From Peduovirus P24C9, in the sequence record NC_049388.1: 32,150 nt of DNA; one strand, given 5' to 3'. This document shows, one piece after another, positions 15,282-32,150 of the stretch. Positions within the stretch are counted from its first letter, which is position 1. The number at the start of each line of letters is the position of its first letter. A program made the position numbers and the translations under genes. Below the pieces are notes generated by a model. It was not told where the DNA came from, made no database searches, and worked only from the letters and a program-made list of their open reading frames with translations.

Positions 15282-15920
15282 ATGAAGATGAAAAACATGT
15301 CTGAAGTGTTGACCCAAGAAAAGCTTATTTTTGTTGCCCAGAGACTAAAGGCCCTCGCGCAGTCAGGCCTGACCTATTCAAAAGACGTCTTTGACAAGGA
15401 ACGCTATGAAGCCTTGCGTGAAATTGCCGCTGGACTGCTGAGTTCGCAGTTTGATATTAGCCGCAATGATTTGTTTCATGTATCGGAAACGGGTTACGCG
15501 ACGCCCAAAACAGATGTGCGTGCGTTTATCCTGCGCAATAATCGTATTCTGATGGTGAAAGAGGCTGCAGATGGATTATGGAGTCTTCCTGGCGGATGGG
15601 CAGATGTTGGAGATACACCTTCTGAAGCTGTGCGTCGAGAGGTCGAAGAAGAAACCGGATTAAAAGTCAGAGTGACTAAACTATTGGGAGTTTGGGATCG
15701 TAATCTTCACGGCCATCCGCCTTTACCCTGGCATGTTTACAAGCTGATTTTTCTCTGTGAAGAAGTAGGTGGCAGCCTGTCAATCAGCCATGAGTCACTC
15801 GATGCTGATTTTTTTGATGTCAACGACCTGCCTGAATTGTCGCTTTCAAGAATTGTGCCTGAGCAGATTGCTGTCAGCCTGAGAGTAGCGAAAGGTGATG
15901 AAAAAACATGGTTTGATTAA
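15282..15920 (+). CDS. Nudix-family hydrolase with an N-terminal extension (accessory gene)
   Basis: Nudix box GWADVG-D-TPSEAVR-REVEEETGL fits GX5EX7REUXEEXGU with Asp for the first Glu; ~90 aa N-terminal domain; AT-richer than flanks; inserted between G and FI. Confidence 0.8.
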   Translation: MKMKNMSEVLTQEKLIFVAQRLKALAQSGLTYSKDVFDKERYEALREIAAGLLSSQFDISRNDLFHVSETGYATPKTDVRAFILRNNRILMVKEAADGLWSLPGGWADVGDTPSEAVRREVEEETGLKVRVTKLLGVWDRNLHGHPPLPWHVYKLIFLCEEVGGSLSISHESLDADFFDVNDLPELSLSRIVPEQIAVSLRVAKGDEKTWFD

Positions 15921-15943
15921 CTTTCTTCTGCAACCATTAAGGA

Positions 15944-16588
15944 ATGGCAATGATATTCAACGCTAAGGGTTTTTTATTCGATATGGACGGTACGCTGGTT
16001 GATTCAACAGCCGTAGTGGAAAGCGTCTGGAGAGATTTTTGTGCAGAATACGGTCTTGATACTCAGGCTGTGATTGCTTACGCACACGGGCGGCAAACGA
16101 TTGATACACTGACGCATTTTATTGGTGCAGGTGAGAAAACCAATAAAATCGCGGCCTCACTCGAAGAGGTTGAAATCAACACGACAGAAGGCGTTACTGA
16201 AGTAAAAGGGGCCGCTGCACTCTTATCAAAACTGCCACCGGATAGCTGGGCACTTGTCACTTCGGCAGGCAGAATGCTTGCCGAAAACAGGATGAAAGCG
16301 GCTAATCTCCCCTTACCCATAGTAATGGTGTGTGCAGAAGATGTAATGACGGGAAAACCAAGTCCCGAGGGTTACATCAAAGCAGCTTTGGCTTTGGGCC
16401 TTGAGCCTGGTGAATGCGTGGTATTTGAGGATGCATCTGCGGGTATAAAAGCAGGGCTGGCAAGTGGAGCTTCGGTAATAGCTGTTCAGCCTGACGCTCC
16501 GGGATCATCTGAAGCCCATGCCGTCAGCGAACTGTCTGACATTATGGTCAAGATTTCCGGAGAACGTTTCAATATCATCTGTGGTTAA
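15944..16588 (+). CDS. HAD-superfamily phosphatase, YfbT-like sugar-phosphatase subfamily (accessory gene)
   Basis: HAD motif I FLFDMDGTLVDS (DxDGT), conserved Lys in GKPSPEGY, motif IV-like FEDASAGIKAG; overall resemblance to E. coli YfbT as I recall it; RBS aggaatgg precedes the ATG. Confidence 0.8.
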   Translation: MAMIFNAKGFLFDMDGTLVDSTAVVESVWRDFCAEYGLDTQAVIAYAHGRQTIDTLTHFIGAGEKTNKIAASLEEVEINTTEGVTEVKGAAALLSKLPPDSWALVTSAGRMLAENRMKAANLPLPIVMVCAEDVMTGKPSPEGYIKAALALGLEPGECVVFEDASAGIKAGLASGASVIAVQPDAPGSSEAHAVSELSDIMVKISGERFNIICG

Positions 16589-26985: not shown

Positions 26986-27257
26986 GTATTCGTATTGAAA
27001 TTGGCGAACGTTATGTCGTTACCAGTGACAGCTTTCAGTTTATTCTCCACGAGAAAAAGAGAGCTGAAAGCGGTAAAAACGCCGGTCAGGAATGGCTGGC
27101 GGTGGTTGGTTATTACCCGAAATTAAGCCAGCTCGTTTCCGGCCTGATGCATCACGATATTCTGACCGGAAGCGCAAAGTCTTTTGCTGATTTAAACGCG
27201 CAGGTTGAGCAACTCAGCAAGCGTTGTTCAGAGGCTTTTGGCTCATATGGCCGTTAA
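26982..27257 (+). CDS. Hypothetical early protein (P2 orf83 position)
   Basis: 91 aa ORF overlapping the start of A. Confidence 0.5.
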   Translation: MSIRIEIGERYVVTSDSFQFILHEKKRAESGKNAGQEWLAVVGYYPKLSQLVSGLMHHDILTGSAKSFADLNAQVEQLSKRCSEAFGSYGR

Positions 27258-29502
27258 AGCCTCCGGGCGTTTTGTCCCTCCGTCAGCATTTGCCGCAGGC
27301 ACCGGTAAGACGTTTACCGGTGCTTATGCATGGAACGCGCCACGCGAGGCCGTCGGGCGCGAAAGACCCCTTACACGTGACGAGATGCGTCAGGTGCAAG
27401 GTGTTTTATCCACGATTAACCGCCTGCCTTACTTTTTGCGCTCGCTGTTTACTTCACGCTATGACTACATCCGGCGCAATAAAAGCCCGGTGCACGGGTT
27501 TTATTTCCTCACATCCACTTTTCAGCGTCGTTTATGGCCGCGCATTGAGCGTGTGAATCAGCGCCATGAAATGAACACCGACGCGTCGTTGCTGTTTCTG
27601 GCAGAGCGTGATCACTATGCGCGCCTGCCGGGAATGAATGACAAGGAGCTGAAAAAGTTTGCCGCCCGTATCTCATCGCAGCTTTTCATGATGTATGAGG
27701 AACTCAGCGATGCCTGGGTGGATGCGCATGGCGAAAAAGAATCACTGTTTACGGATGAGGCTCAGGATCACCTGTATGGTCATGTTGCTGGCGCTGCACG
27801 AGCTTTCAATATTTCCCCTCTCTACTGGAAAAAATACCGTAAAAGACAGATGACCACGAGGCAGGCATATTCTGCCATTGCCCGTCTGTTTAACGATGAG
27901 TGGTGGACTCATCAGCTTAAAGGCCAGCGTATGCGCTGGCATGAAGCGTTACTGATAGCTGTCGGGGAGGTCAATAAAGACCGTTCTCCTTATGCCAGTA
28001 AACACGCCATTCGTGATGTGCGTGCGCGCCGCCAGGCAAATCTGGAATTTCTTAAATCGTGTGACCTTGAAAACAGGGAAACCGGCGAGCGCATCGACCT
28101 TATCAGTAAGGTGATGGGCAGTATTTCTAATCCTGAAATTCGCCGGATGGAGCTGATGAACACCATTGCCGGTATTGAGCGTTACGCCGCTGCAGAGGGT
28201 GATGTGGGGATGTTTATCACGCTGACCGCGCCGTCAAAGTATCACCCGACACGTCAGGTAGGAAAAGGCGAAAGTAAAACCGTGCAGCTTAATCACGGCT
28301 GGAACGATGAGGCATTTAATCCAAAGGATGCGCAGCGTTATCTCTGCCGTATCTGGAGCCTGATGCGCACGGCATTCAAGGATAATGATTTACAGGTCTA
28401 CGGTTTGCGTGTCGTCGAGCCACACCACGACGGAACGCCGCACTGGCATATGATGCTTTTTTGTAATTCACGCCAGCGTAACCAGATTATCGAAATCATG
28501 CGTCGCTATGCGCTCAAAGAGGATGGCGACGAAAGAGGAGCCGCGCGAAACCGTTTTCAGGCAAAACACCTTAACCGGGGCGGTGCTGCGGGATATATCG
28601 CGAAATACATTTCAAAAAACATCGACGGCTATGCACTGGATGGTCAGCTCGATAACGACACCGGCAGGCCGCTGAAAGACACTGCAGCGGCTGTTACCGC
28701 ATGGGCGTCAACGTGGCGCATCCCGCAATTTAAAACGGTTGGCCTGCCGACAATGGGGGCTTACCGTGAACTACGCAAATTGCCGCGCGGCGTCAGCATT
28801 GCTGATGAGTTTGACGAGCGCGTCGAGGCTGCACGCGCCGCCGCAGACAGTGGTGATTTTGCGTTGTATATCAGCGCGCAGGGTGGGGCAAATGTCCCGC
28901 GCGATTGTCAGACTGTCAGAGTCGCCCGTAGCCCGTCGGATGAAGTTAACGAGTACGAGGAAGAAGTCGAGAGAGTGGTCGGCATTTACGCGCCGCATCT
29001 CGGCGCGCGTCATATTCATATCACCAGAACGACGGACTGGCGCATTGTGCCGAAAGTTCCGGTCGTTGAGCCTTTGACTTTAAAAAGCGGCATCGCCGCG
29101 CCTCGGAGTCCTGTCAATAACTGTGGAAAGCTCACCAGTGGTGATACTTCGTTACCGGCTCCCACACCTTCTGAACACGCCGCAGCAGTGCTTAATCTGG
29201 TTGATGACGGTGTTATCGAATGGAATGACCCGGAGGTCGTGAGGGTGCTCAGGGGCGCATTAAAACACGGCCTGAGAACACCAAATCGTCAGCAAAGAAA
29301 CGGAAGCCCGTTAAAACCACATGAAATTGCACCATCGGCCAGGCTGACCCGGCCGGAACGATTGCAAATTACCCGTATCCGCGTTGACCTTGCTCAGAAC
29401 GGTATCAGGCCTCAGCGATGGGAGCTTGAGGCGCTGGCGCGTGGGGCGATGGTGATTTATGATAATAAAAAATTCAAATATCCAGTGATTGATGAGTGGT
29501 AA
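27247..29502 (+). CDS. A: Replication initiation protein A (HUH rolling-circle endonuclease)
   Basis: Start placed at ATG 27247 (MAVKASGRF...); ORF track begins at 27205. Contains an HUH-like motif (PHWHMMLF) and a Tyr motif (GYIAKYISKN); P2 gpA-like size. Confidence 0.85.
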   Translation: MAVKASGRFVPPSAFAAGTGKTFTGAYAWNAPREAVGRERPLTRDEMRQVQGVLSTINRLPYFLRSLFTSRYDYIRRNKSPVHGFYFLTSTFQRRLWPRIERVNQRHEMNTDASLLFLAERDHYARLPGMNDKELKKFAARISSQLFMMYEELSDAWVDAHGEKESLFTDEAQDHLYGHVAGAARAFNISPLYWKKYRKRQMTTRQAYSAIARLFNDEWWTHQLKGQRMRWHEALLIAVGEVNKDRSPYASKHAIRDVRARRQANLEFLKSCDLENRETGERIDLISKVMGSISNPEIRRMELMNTIAGIERYAAAEGDVGMFITLTAPSKYHPTRQVGKGESKTVQLNHGWNDEAFNPKDAQRYLCRIWSLMRTAFKDNDLQVYGLRVVEPHHDGTPHWHMMLFCNSRQRNQIIEIMRRYALKEDGDERGAARNRFQAKHLNRGGAAGYIAKYISKNIDGYALDGQLDNDTGRPLKDTAAAVTAWASTWRIPQFKTVGLPTMGAYRELRKLPRGVSIADEFDERVEAARAAADSGDFALYISAQGGANVPRDCQTVRVARSPSDEVNEYEEEVERVVGIYAPHLGARHIHITRTTDWRIVPKVPVVEPLTLKSGIAAPRSPVNNCGKLTSGDTSLPAPTPSEHAAAVLNLVDDGVIEWNDPEVVRVLRGALKHGLRTPNRQQRNGSPLKPHEIAPSARLTRPERLQITRIRVDLAQNGIRPQRWELEALARGAMVIYDNKKFKYPVIDEW

Positions 29503-29631
29503 GGCTATTAAATTACGAATAAATACAGGTCTTATTGATGGATTGGGTAATAGTAAACTTTAAAAAATAATAATTGTAATGTTTTAAATTATAGTTAAAT
29601 TTCGCTTAATGACATTATCTTCTTAATATTT

Positions 29632-29661
29632 AAAGTGCCTCCCATTATTAGGGGGCACTTT
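29632..29661. terminator. Putative bidirectional terminator between convergent A and accessory operon
   Basis: Imperfect hairpin aaagtgcctccc-attatta-gggggcacttt in a very AT-rich gap, with A/T runs on both sides. Confidence 0.5.
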
Positions 29662-29677
29662 AAATTATGGGATTAAT

Positions 29678-30961
29678 TTATTGTGGCCAGTCCCAGTTAT
29701 CATATTGTTGAATTTTTTCTGATAACACTTGAGGTGCACTACCGTGAGTTACATTTTCAGCATAACCAATCGTACCGACATAGTTAATGTCATCAACATC
29801 AAGTGTATTGGCCTCCCATGGCCGTATCTTGCGAGTTGGTTCACAGATAGAAACGTCACGATTGATGGTTTTTAACCACGATATATTTATTACATTTGCG
29901 CCTGCAGCTTTTAGATACATTCTGGCTGTTTCATGAGCATTTCCTTCAGTGCAAAAATCATCAATAACTAATATTTTCTTACCTTTCAATTTAGGAGGGT
30001 TGGTATATCTTTCGCCGGTGATGAGGTTTTTAATAGGGGCAGGATTTAAATTAACGGTGTTTATTTGAGATGTGATGTTTACTTCTTGCTTAGCTATCCG
30101 AGCTTGCTGTGATTTAATAGCTGTTGTATGTCGTAAGAATAGATCTTTTAGATACTTTCCTTTGAATGAGACTGCTAAACCTTTTAGGTCATGCTCCATA
30201 ATGTTTGCTAGTTTATAAGGATCTTCAGCGTTATGTCCAACGTAGGTGGTTATAAAACTTGCTCCTTCACTTAAGCCAGAGAAATAAATGCTAGCACCAA
30301 GATATCTTATCCAAAAATCGGGGCTTCCAACCGATAGCTTTGCGAGGTCTCTTGCATTGGCTGAATACATTGTAAATTCAGGGACATATGTGCTAAATGG
30401 TGCTAAGGCGTAGTAGTGAACATCTTCATTAAAATGCCCTTGCCATCCCCACAACTGCTCTCTTAAGCAAAAGACATCAATAAATCTAGCGATTTCTTTG
30501 GGTTCTGAAAATTGAAAACCGTACTCAGTAACCGGTTCATACCAGGTCGCATTAATAAATAGGGTATTCCCGTTGGTAGCTGCTTGTAAGTCTTCCTGAG
30601 AACGCCCTACATAGATCATTTCGTTTCGTTTTAATTCTAACGCAGCCATGATGAAATCTATGGCCTTCCCTGTTTGTTTTGCTGGTATGTTGTTGTCGAG
30701 TTCACGGCAAAAGTGAATTGATTCTGGGAATTTCCTTTTTAGGTATTCGTCTAGTGTTACGATCCCGTCATGTGTTCTCACGTTTCTATTTTTATTTGTC
30801 AAGAAGATAACTTTAATCCCTTTTGATGACAAAAACGCAAACAACTTACGTAATTCAGAGTCGATTCTAGATTTTAGTTCCTGAGGTTGAGTGTTAGATG
30901 TTAATGGTAATACAACATCTGCGATTGAAAATATAACTGCCTTTAAATACATATTATTCAT
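29678..30961 (-). CDS. Phosphoribosyltransferase-domain protein, second gene of the accessory operon
   Basis: 427 aa; C-terminal PRTase-like motif KKILVIDDFCTEGNAHET; N-terminal half has degenerate HAD-like motifs (VIFSIADVV, IYVGRSQEDLQAATNGN); start overlaps the upstream gene by 8 nt; AT-rich. Confidence 0.7.
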   Translation of the reverse strand: MNNMYLKAVIFSIADVVLPLTSNTQPQELKSRIDSELRKLFAFLSSKGIKVIFLTNKNRNVRTHDGIVTLDEYLKRKFPESIHFCRELDNNIPAKQTGKAIDFIMAALELKRNEMIYVGRSQEDLQAATNGNTLFINATWYEPVTEYGFQFSEPKEIARFIDVFCLREQLWGWQGHFNEDVHYYALAPFSTYVPEFTMYSANARDLAKLSVGSPDFWIRYLGASIYFSGLSEGASFITTYVGHNAEDPYKLANIMEHDLKGLAVSFKGKYLKDLFLRHTTAIKSQQARIAKQEVNITSQINTVNLNPAPIKNLITGERYTNPPKLKGKKILVIDDFCTEGNAHETARMYLKAAGANVINISWLKTINRDVSICEPTRKIRPWEANTLDVDDINYVGTIGYAENVTHGSAPQVLSEKIQQYDNWDWPQ

Positions 30962-32003
30962 CTCCCAGAAGAGAAAGTTGCTGTGTTTTTACACCGGATG
31001 CTGATTTAATTAAGCTTTGCACGTCTTTAAAATCGGATAGTGGAATATTCATTATCGTAGCTGAGTACTCTGACAAGGCATGTTTAATCTCTTCTTGAGG
31101 TGTAGTTCCCCTAAGTAAAGGACAAAGTATCGCTCTTTTTAATTGAGCAGCATATCTCACAGTATGAGATGTCCCACTTTTTAGGCCCCATTCAACTGGG
31201 ATCAATACATCACTTAAAGCTGCTTGAATTCTATTTCTACGAACAAAGTTTTCCTGTGATGGTTTTTGGTTTGGTAAATACTCAGTAAGAATCAGTCCGC
31301 CATTATTTACAATATGGCCTCTCATCTCGCCACTATTTTTGGGATAATTTGAGTTTACGCCAGTACCTAACACAGCAATTGTCGGTATTTTAAATAACAG
31401 GGATGCTTCATGTGCAGATTGATCTATACCATATGCTAAACCGCTTACAGTTGAATAATCCGAATCTATAAATTGCGAGATTACTGCTTGAGTTAAATAA
31501 ATTCCAAGTGCGGTTGGGTTTCTGGTGCCGACAACTCCAACACACTTTTTATCTAGCAAGGATACATTGCCTTGAGCAAACAACCAGAAAGGCGGCTCAG
31601 ACAGGTCATTCAACTTGTCTGGATAGCTCGGAGAACCATGGTGGATGATTTTGTAACCACTATTATGATAATGTGTGAGTAATATTTTAGCCGTAGAAAT
31701 CATGCTGTCCCGAAAAACAGACCAATTGCCTTCATTCAAATAATAAGGTTGGCGATGAAGTTTTACTCCAAGTAGATACTCAAAGTTGGCTAATGTTTGG
31801 CTGGTAACAATGTCTCTAAATCTGATTCCCTTTTGAGCAACTTTATATAGAGTCCAATAACTAACGCCATGTATTTCTGATAGTGCCAACAAAGCGGCAC
31901 TTTCTGTGTTCCATCGAGCTGTTTCAATATCCGTCATAATGTTCGCCAAAATGGAAGATTTTTTATCGCTTTTATCATAGGTTTGTATAAAAGTGTAGCA
32001 CAT
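30954..32003 (-). CDS. DprA/Smf-like (SLOG-type Rossmann fold) protein, first gene of the accessory operon
   Basis: 349 aa; DprA-family motifs VGVVGTRNPTALG, SGLAYGIDQSAHEASL, TIAVLGTGVNSNYPKN, LTEY and FVRRNRIQAALSD...SGTSHTVRYAAQLKRAI; alternative start at MTDIETARW (31937); AT-rich. Confidence 0.75.
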   Translation of the reverse strand: MCYTFIQTYDKSDKKSSILANIMTDIETARWNTESAALLALSEIHGVSYWTLYKVAQKGIRFRDIVTSQTLANFEYLLGVKLHRQPYYLNEGNWSVFRDSMISTAKILLTHYHNSGYKIIHHGSPSYPDKLNDLSEPPFWLFAQGNVSLLDKKCVGVVGTRNPTALGIYLTQAVISQFIDSDYSTVSGLAYGIDQSAHEASLLFKIPTIAVLGTGVNSNYPKNSGEMRGHIVNNGGLILTEYLPNQKPSQENFVRRNRIQAALSDVLIPVEWGLKSGTSHTVRYAAQLKRAILCPLLRGTTPQEEIKHALSEYSATIMNIPLSDFKDVQSLIKSASGVKTQQLSLLGDE

Positions 32004-32110: not shown

Positions 32111-32150
32111 TCTGCATTAAAACCGCCCCACGAAGCGGGCGGGCGAGGCG

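Follow-up and report, generated by a model that had tools for sequence, protein, structure and literature searches.

The HAD-fold N-terminal domain of the anti-phage toxin ShosT lacks the catalytic aspartates and may act as a phosphoryl-binding module

What does the N-terminal domain of the anti-phage toxin ShosT do? The question is raised by an open reading frame (ORF) on the minus strand at positions 29678-30961 of the Peduovirus P24C9 record NC_049388.1, whose 32,150 nucleotides (hereafter the window) are a P2-like phage genome. Counted from its first ATG, the ORF encodes 427 amino acids (aa) and corresponds to ShosT, the toxin of the ShosTA (DprA-phosphoribosyltransferase, DprA-PRTase) anti-phage system: the PADLOC ShosT model PDLC03012 matches it with an E value of 4e-296 across residues 1-427, its identity to the crystallised ShosT (PDB 8ZVB/8ZVC/8ZVD and 9W2P/9W2Q) is 100%, and it matches no PsyrT model in PADLOC. 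An earlier examination of the letters alone (the sequence-only reading) had noticed degenerate motifs of the haloacid dehalogenase (HAD) superfamily in this protein. ShosTA is a validated anti-phage system for whose PRTase domain an acceptor substrate has not been found, and the pyrophosphatase (PPase) role currently given to the N-terminal domain is based on fold similarity to a HAD-type enzyme. Here, we favour a different answer, namely that the domain is probably a pseudo-HAD phosphoryl-binding accessory module with a binding or regulatory rather than a catalytic role. The literature and the PDB already contain the domain, the protein and the system, and neither fold nor protein is new, since the identical protein has been crystallised and described. 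What is added here is small, namely the unremarked loss of the catalytic aspartates, its coupled, clade-wide pattern, and a sister ShosTA clade with intact motifs, but it makes the function of the domain directly testable. The gene and the domain are located as follows:

29678..30961, minus strand: shosT coding sequence, 427 aa, assigned by PADLOC PDLC03012 and PDB identity
30461..30952, minus strand: cap-less HAD-fold domain, residues 4-167 (published 1-164)

The sequence-only reading had placed its finding at 29678-30400. As the gene lies on the minus strand, those positions encode residues 188-427, i.e., the C-terminal PRTase half, and the HAD-like domain is found at ~30461-30952 instead.

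Single-sequence scans of ShosT against Pfam and NCBIfam gave HAD and PRTase matches that were all below threshold; those to the Pfam HAD families were PF00702 (E value 3e-4, 21.7 bits against a cut-off of 26.4) and PF13419 (4.7e-3), both covering residues ~33-136. A total of 201 homologues were collected, and a 36-sequence alignment of residues 1-170 (A1) was built. Searched against the PDB, the A1 profile matched the HAD phosphatases 2HI0 (E value 1.3e-7), 2OM6 (8.9e-5) and 3KZX (2.9e-4), and from a library of 1.8 billion representative proteins it retrieved canonical HAD hydrolases of the form 'IFDLDGTL...VGDSxxD' with E values of ~1e-11. Comparison of A1 with canonical HADs, including the one encoded in the window itself, by hhalign gave a probability of 99.45% and an E value of 4.9e-22 over 129 columns. 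Chance resemblance was ruled out by the profile matches together with this hhalign result. The AlphaFold model of residues 1-170 has a pLDDT of 93.9. The domain shows the Rossmannoid three-layer alpha/beta core with the strand order S3-S2-S1-S4-S5, and a linker of ~15 residues between strand 1 and the first helix leaves no cap. Judged by these comparisons, the first ~165 residues of ShosT belong by descent to the HAD superfamily and represent its cap-less kind. Both the profile-profile comparison and the structure prediction returned a HAD fold, and the unrelated fold that would have refuted the sequence-only reading did not appear. Its proposal of a HAD-like domain fused to a PRTase effector is fully supported and had earlier been demonstrated by crystallography of the identical protein (PMC11961720).

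In HAD enzymes, motif I is DxDx(T/V) at the end of strand S1, with the first Asp as nucleophile and the second as acid/base; motif II is a Ser/Thr at the end of S2, and motif III is a Lys before the helix upstream of S4 (PMC8069645). In ShosT, the four motif regions were mapped to the following positions:

30911..30937, minus strand: degenerate motif I VIFSIADVV, residues 9-17, by hhalign to the intact-motif clade
30785..30811, minus strand: motif II region VIFLTNKNR, residues 51-59, matched in alignments with AVVSNK of 2HI0 and with the profile of canonical HADs
30674..30688, minus strand: motif III IPAKQ, residues 92-96, with Lys95 (published K92) aligned to the K of KPxP
30566..30616, minus strand: half-degenerate motif IV IYVGRSQEDLQAATNGN, residues 116-132, aligned to VYIGDSEIDIQTARNSE of 2HI0 and to IFVGDSQVDIETAKNAG

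The first and last of these are the peptides on which the sequence-only reading was built; they lie 107 residues apart and follow each other in the order and at the distance expected of HAD motifs I and IV. The capped HADs, i.e., the PDB profile matches and the canonical set, align with ShosT over motifs II-IV and not over motif I, because the cap is inserted there. Motif I was aligned by means of A3, a set of 15 cap-less ShosT-like proteins (~380-400 aa) in which the motifs are kept. The profile-profile alignment of A1 and A3 (probability 99.93%, E value 3.6e-36) places KAVIFSIADVVL opposite EAILFDLDGTLV, and IYVGRSQ-ED opposite IYIGDNDRTD. The residues S12-I13-A14-D15-V16 face D-L-D-G-T, such that Ser12 occupies the position of the nucleophile Asp, Ala14 that of Asp+2, and Asp15 that of the Gly of DxDG; the DxDx(T/V) pattern is absent. 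In motif IV, Gly119 and the second acid (Asp124) are kept and Arg120 stands in place of the first acidic residue, the 'GD' reading Gly119-Arg120. Motif II is kept as Thr55-Asn56, with Thr55 aligned to the S/T of SNK/TNK, and the motif III Lys is present as Lys95. Moreover, the predicted strands 8-11, 50-55 and 115-119 terminate exactly at Ser12, Thr55 and Gly119/Arg120, respectively. The replacements read by eye (DxD to S-I-A and GD to GR) proved correct in the profile alignment and hold across the clade.

Residues were tabulated in 189 relatives with residues at every motif position and cross-tabulated in 188 of them. Position 12 is S in 120 relatives, G in 42, D in 18 and A in six, and position 120 is N in 65, A in 41, S in 34, R in 24 and D in 17, with D occurring solely in the intact-motif clade described below. 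Asn56 is found in 182 of the 189 relatives, Gly119 in 186 and Asp124 in all 189, and position 95 is always basic (K in 174, R in 15). According to the cross-tabulation, the nucleophile Asp and the motif IV Asp are both gone in 169 of 188 relatives and both present in 16, and Asp plus His is seen in two; this alignment-based count confirms that the losses of the two aspartates are coupled and clade-wide. The one protein (P0258) that appeared to combine a non-Asp nucleophile with an Asp in motif IV proved to be a canonical HAD with a cap whose motif I had been misaligned, and it was ignored.

When 164 positions of the domain were ranked by conservation, Asp124 came 1st, Gly119 4th, Asn56 9th and Lys95 19th, with Arg59 and Arg120 at ranks 82 and 92. 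In 93 distant homologues, identity to the query is 0.37 for the N-terminal domain versus 0.40 for the PRTase domain; the HAD-like domain of ShosT is not decaying and is conserved about as much as the PRTase domain. Strong conservation extends into the segment that joins the two domains:

30458..30553, minus strand: family-specific segment NATWYEPVTEYGFQFSEPKEIARFIDVFCLRE, residues 137-168, joining the HAD core to the PRTase domain

Within this segment, W140 and G148 are invariant and Y147, F151, P154, A158, D162 and C165 are nearly so, and the segment is also kept in the intact-motif clade. As a separate observation, the pocket arginines Arg59 (30785-30787) and Arg120 (30602-30604) are subclade-specific: most relatives have Trp at position 59 (110 of 189) and Asn, Ala or Ser at position 120. 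Both arginines occur together in only 11 of 188 relatives, so the pair is a feature of a subclade. As Arg59 is replaced in most relatives, the published 'PPase' mutant, R56A, targets a non-conserved residue.

Because the nucleophile Asp, the Asp+2 and the Mg-binding motif IV Asp are all absent, aspartyl-phosphate/Mg2+ catalysis by the N-terminal domain of ShosT is excluded on sequence grounds. Two ways of rescuing a nucleophile were considered and set aside. A register shift that makes Asp15 the nucleophile was rejected, as its column pairs with the Gly of DxDG and, in 74 of 189 relatives, contains N or G. A role for Ser12 as a conserved nucleophile was considered unlikely, position 12 being Gly or Ala in 48 of 189. 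In the pseudo-HAD that results, Ser12, Ala14 and Arg120 replace the Asp nucleophile, the acid/base Asp+2 and the Mg-binding motif IV Asp, and the elements that hold the phosphoryl group (the Thr55-Asn56 loop, Lys95 and Gly119/Asp124) are kept under strong selection. In the subclade of the query, Arg59 and Arg120 may, as the alignment suggests, supply the positive charge that Mg2+ gives in active HADs. The resulting metal-independent phosphate/pyrophosphate pocket would assist or tune the PRTase toxin, e.g., by holding inorganic pyrophosphate (PPi), phosphate (Pi) or another phospho-ligand. A canonical phosphatase is unlikely, and any hydrolysis of PPi by ShosT would need a non-HAD mechanism.

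Published structural work bears directly on this pocket and on the second domain, whose features are:

29681..30460, minus strand: C-terminal PRTase domain, residues 168-427 (PF00156 E value 1e-4 at residues 306-360, below threshold)
29939..29974, minus strand: loop binding phosphoribosyl pyrophosphate (PRPP), ILVIDDFCTEGN, residues 330-341, identified from the sequence; Asp334/Asp335 correspond to the published D331/D332

The acidic PRPP-binding loop VIDDFCTEGN with Asp334/Asp335, as expected of a PRTase, is present in ShosT, and crystal structures of ShosT with PRPP have been described. Pu et al. (2025, PMC11961720) defined a 'hydrolase domain' at the N-terminus, spanning residues 1-164 in a numbering from Met4 of the ORF, and considered it homologous to the HAD-type pyrophosphatase BT2127. 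In their structure 8ZVD, a phosphate is held by R56, by the main chain of N53/K54, and by K92 through water (PMC11961720). These residues are Arg59, Asn56/Lys57 and Lys95 in the present numbering, i.e., the motif II/III pocket, which is the canonical phosphoryl pocket of HADs. The pocket is thus kept, strongly conserved and seen to bind phosphate, which argues for a functional phosphoryl-binding site. In toxicity assays, R56A caused a marginal drop versus complete loss of toxicity in D331A/D332A (PMC11961720), which argues for an accessory role of the HAD-like domain. The lack of the Mg-binding Asp also fits the reported Mg-independence. Yang et al. (2026, PMC12961424) confirmed the architecture and described the N-terminal domain as 'of unknown function'. 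Neither PMC11961720 nor PMC12961424 mentions an aspartate, a nucleophile or 'HAD' for the N-terminal domain, and the missing aspartates have gone unremarked there.

Several points weigh against the binding-module interpretation. Purified ShosT consumes PPi in vitro and does not need Mg2+ for it, and the phosphate found after co-crystallisation with PPi was read by Pu et al. as the product of hydrolysis (PMC11961720); should the PPi consumption prove robust, the domain is an enzyme with an unusual mechanism. With S in 120 of the 189 relatives, position 12 is fairly conserved, and Ser12 could in principle be a nucleophile; about half of the 189 relatives keep Glu or Asp at position 14. The placement of Arg120 in the Mg2+ site is suggested by the alignment only. 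Phosphate is the only known ligand of the pocket, and a deletion of the N-terminal domain is not reported in the literature, including the study of Yang et al. (PMC12961424). Of the non-catalytic binding domain imagined in the sequence-only reading, one part stood, in that the canonical Asp/Mg mechanism is impossible and the phosphoryl-binding residues are kept; the claim that no catalysis takes place stands against the reported Mg-independent consumption of PPi (PMC11961720).

Relatives that have not lost the motifs offer a comparison. Intact-motif ShosT-like proteins share 24-30% identity with ShosT over nearly their full length (E values 1e-21 to 1e-37), score above the Pfam HAD thresholds (as much as 58 bits for HAD_2) and are recognised by both ShosT models of PADLOC. 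They keep DxDGT, or in some members DxSGT, and GDxxxD; the DxSGT forms may be intermediate states. A ShosA-like DprA gene (PF02481, PADLOC ShosA models) lies directly upstream of the toxin in all four of the loci that were looked up, and by gene content and sequence the intact clade belongs to ShosTA. The toxins of these divergent systems (e.g., P0237, P0265 and P0219; loci L001, L003 and L004) are the same HAD-PRTase fusion as ShosT and have the W140, Y147-G148 and P154 signature in common with it, whereas, unlike ShosT, they keep intact catalytic HAD motifs. They are predicted to be active phosphatases, because the motifs are kept and the Pfam HAD thresholds are passed. As HADs in general carry the aspartates, it is simplest to assume that they were lost in the E. 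coli-type clade. With regard to the surroundings of these loci, the L003 toxin adjoins an Eco57I-like restriction-modification gene, L006 lies near a HEPN/AbiU2 gene, and the ShosA-like gene in L006 has only 193 aa.

The intact-motif sister clade is a natural comparison set for the function of the fusion, and the coupled loss of the aspartates with the phosphate pocket kept makes the published model less secure and speaks for binding or regulation as the role of the domain. A more specific proposal, which we put forward tentatively and at somewhat less than even chances, is that the ShosT domain is not a pyrophosphatase but a pseudoenzyme, a phospho-ligand sensor or clamp derived from a HAD phosphatase that is still active in the divergent ShosTA clade. 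If this holds, the ancestral toxin would have acted in two steps, phosphoribosyl transfer followed by dephosphorylation, draining PRPP or making a toxic nucleoside; the published model of a 'PRTase coupled to PPase' would need revision; and the intact-clade enzymes would be a route to the substrate of ShosT.

Among the alternatives, the published one survives best. In it, the domain is a genuine inorganic pyrophosphatase of a Mg-independent, non-canonical kind that hydrolyses the PPi released by the PRTase domain and thereby pulls the toxic reaction forward. Its evidence consists of an end-point assay and of the phosphate found when ShosT was crystallised in the presence of 10 mM PPi at pH 6.0-6.5, and we regard it as suggestive rather than conclusive. 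PPi kept at pH 6.0-6.5 over days of crystallisation can, we infer, give Pi without an enzyme. The sole residue mutated, R56 (Arg59), is Trp in most relatives, and R56A barely alters toxicity; that mutant appears only in the toxicity assay, and no in-vitro test of a pocket mutant is described by Pu et al. (PMC11961720). All three aspartates by which HAD catalysis is defined (PMC8069645), i.e., the nucleophile, the Asp+2 and the Mg-binding one of motif IV, are absent, and there is no cap domain, the linker between strand 1 and the first helix being ~15 residues long. On balance, a genuine pyrophosphatase seems to us rather unlikely, at perhaps one chance in a few.

The second alternative is that the domain is an inert relic or structural scaffold which only folds or stabilises the PRTase domain and whose pocket has no ligand-related function. 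The loss of the catalytic residues and the minimal phenotype of R56A agree with this, and the extreme conservation of the segment linking HAD and PRTase suggests a packing role. However, Asn56, Lys95, Gly119 and Asp124, none of which a scaffold needs, rank with the best-conserved residues of the domain, whose evolution is about as slow as that of the PRTase domain, and a phosphate is seen in the pocket. A pure scaffold is accordingly improbable.

A third alternative supposes that the pocket senses or acts on some other phospho-compound, the candidates being PRPP, a DNA end, a nucleotide alarmone and the 5'-phosphate of the PRTase product. The domain would then be a module for specificity or regulation, or else a phosphatase of a weak, non-canonical type. 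No acceptor substrate of ShosT has been found and four purines did not bind; the intact-motif relatives, predicted phosphatases on the same PRTase, suggest an ancestral two-step reaction; and two of them weakly match the polynucleotide 3'-phosphatase model PNK3P. The PNK3P matches are below threshold and phosphate is the only ligand with direct evidence, and we consider this alternative very improbable.

The phosphoryl-binding module that we prefer can also be set beside known proteins. Compared with HAD subfamily IA phosphatases (phosphoglycolate-phosphatase-like; PDB 2HI0, 2YY6 and 3KZX), ShosT lacks the C1 cap, its motif I is S-I-A-D and not D-x-D-G, and the first acid of motif IV is Arg. 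Other structures are closer to ShosT than the HAD-type (type III) PPase BT2127 of Bacteroides thetaiotaomicron (PDB 3QU2), and ShosT does not have the combination of HAD catalytic motifs and a C1 cap shaping the PPi site that marks BT2127-like type III PPases. According to a 2011 paper, BT2127 works with Mg2+ and an Asp nucleophile in motif I and carries a small cap; ShosT is without these features. A known non-catalytic HAD-like domain, at the C-terminus of murine CMP-sialic acid synthetase (PDB 3EWI), belongs, unlike that of ShosT, to the KDO8P-phosphatase-like subfamily. It serves as an oligomerisation platform; ShosT, in contrast, is reported to be monomeric. At the level of the system, PsyrTA / RqlHI likewise pairs a DprA-like antitoxin with a PRTase-containing toxin. 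The ShosT of E. coli APEC O1 has the identical sequence, the same operon partner ShosA and the same P2 cos-proximal hotspot context.

The other features of the locus are the antitoxin gene and an intergenic hairpin:

30954..32003, minus strand: shosA, DprA-like antitoxin, 349-aa ORF (PF02481 E value 9.8e-60, PADLOC ShosA E value 2.2e-231)
29628..29665, no strand assigned: hairpin between the convergent genes gpA and shosT (folding free energy -21.8 kcal/mol, z score -5.7)

The shosA gene adjoins shosT upstream in the same orientation. Experiments on the identical ShosT protein have demonstrated neutralisation of its toxicity by ShosA as well as protection against phage. ShosA also matches the PADLOC PsyrA model (E value 3.8e-24). 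The PADLOC ShosA match covers residues 23-349, and PDB 9VZO and 8ZVA match from residue 22 of the shosA ORF; the published ShosA starts at Met23 (ATG 31937), and the annotation of phage 10W uses the 349-aa form (ATG 32003). As for shosT, its first ATG (30961) overlaps the end of shosA and is directly abutted by a ribosome-binding-like GGGAG at 30962-30966, whereas the ATG at 30952 (Met4) lies 9 nucleotides past GGGAG and 1 nucleotide past the shosA stop. The N-termini of homologues and the published numbering (offset 3) agree with the latter, and the true start of shosT is probably ATG 30952, giving 424 aa.

The 2.6 kb that hold shosTA are 100% identical to Escherichia phage 10W (Peduovirus). 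They lie between replication gene A (27205-29502) and the right end, i.e., in the cos-proximal hotspot, and their GC content is 0.33-0.39 versus 0.50-0.58 in gene A (gpA). The P2 cos-proximal hotspot is known to carry a DprA+PRTase system active against T7 and lambda (Rousset et al., PMC9122126). Of 5,426 complete E. coli genomes, 30 contain the whole 5.1-kb stretch at this locus. RefSeq labels ShosT there as 'hypothetical protein' despite its experimental characterisation, and gives the name 'HAD family hydrolase, partial' to a truncated copy elsewhere.

The hairpin at 29628-29665 is located in the 175-nucleotide AT-rich gap between gpA and shosT, and in RNA folding none of 200 shuffles folded equally well. 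A scan for consensus terminators did not flag this hairpin, which probably acts as a terminator in both directions. A further hairpin, GC-rich and terminator-like, with TTTTAAT after it, occurs at 32123-32142 (minus strand); it lies close to the right end of the genome and immediately upstream of shosA. The final ~54 nucleotides of the window match those at the right end of phage P2.

A second pair of cargo genes was observed at 15282-16588 (plus strand), between the tail-fibre gene G and the sheath gene FI, a position that we take to be Z/fun of the P2 map. The first gene encodes a NUDIX hydrolase (Nudix_N + NUDIX; PADLOC candidate PDC-S07, E value 6.6e-10), and the second a canonical capped HAD phosphatase with the intact motifs FLFDMDGTL, GKPSP and FEDA (HAD_2, 79 bits). 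As this capped HAD keeps its motifs, one intact and one degenerate HAD are carried by the same prophage.

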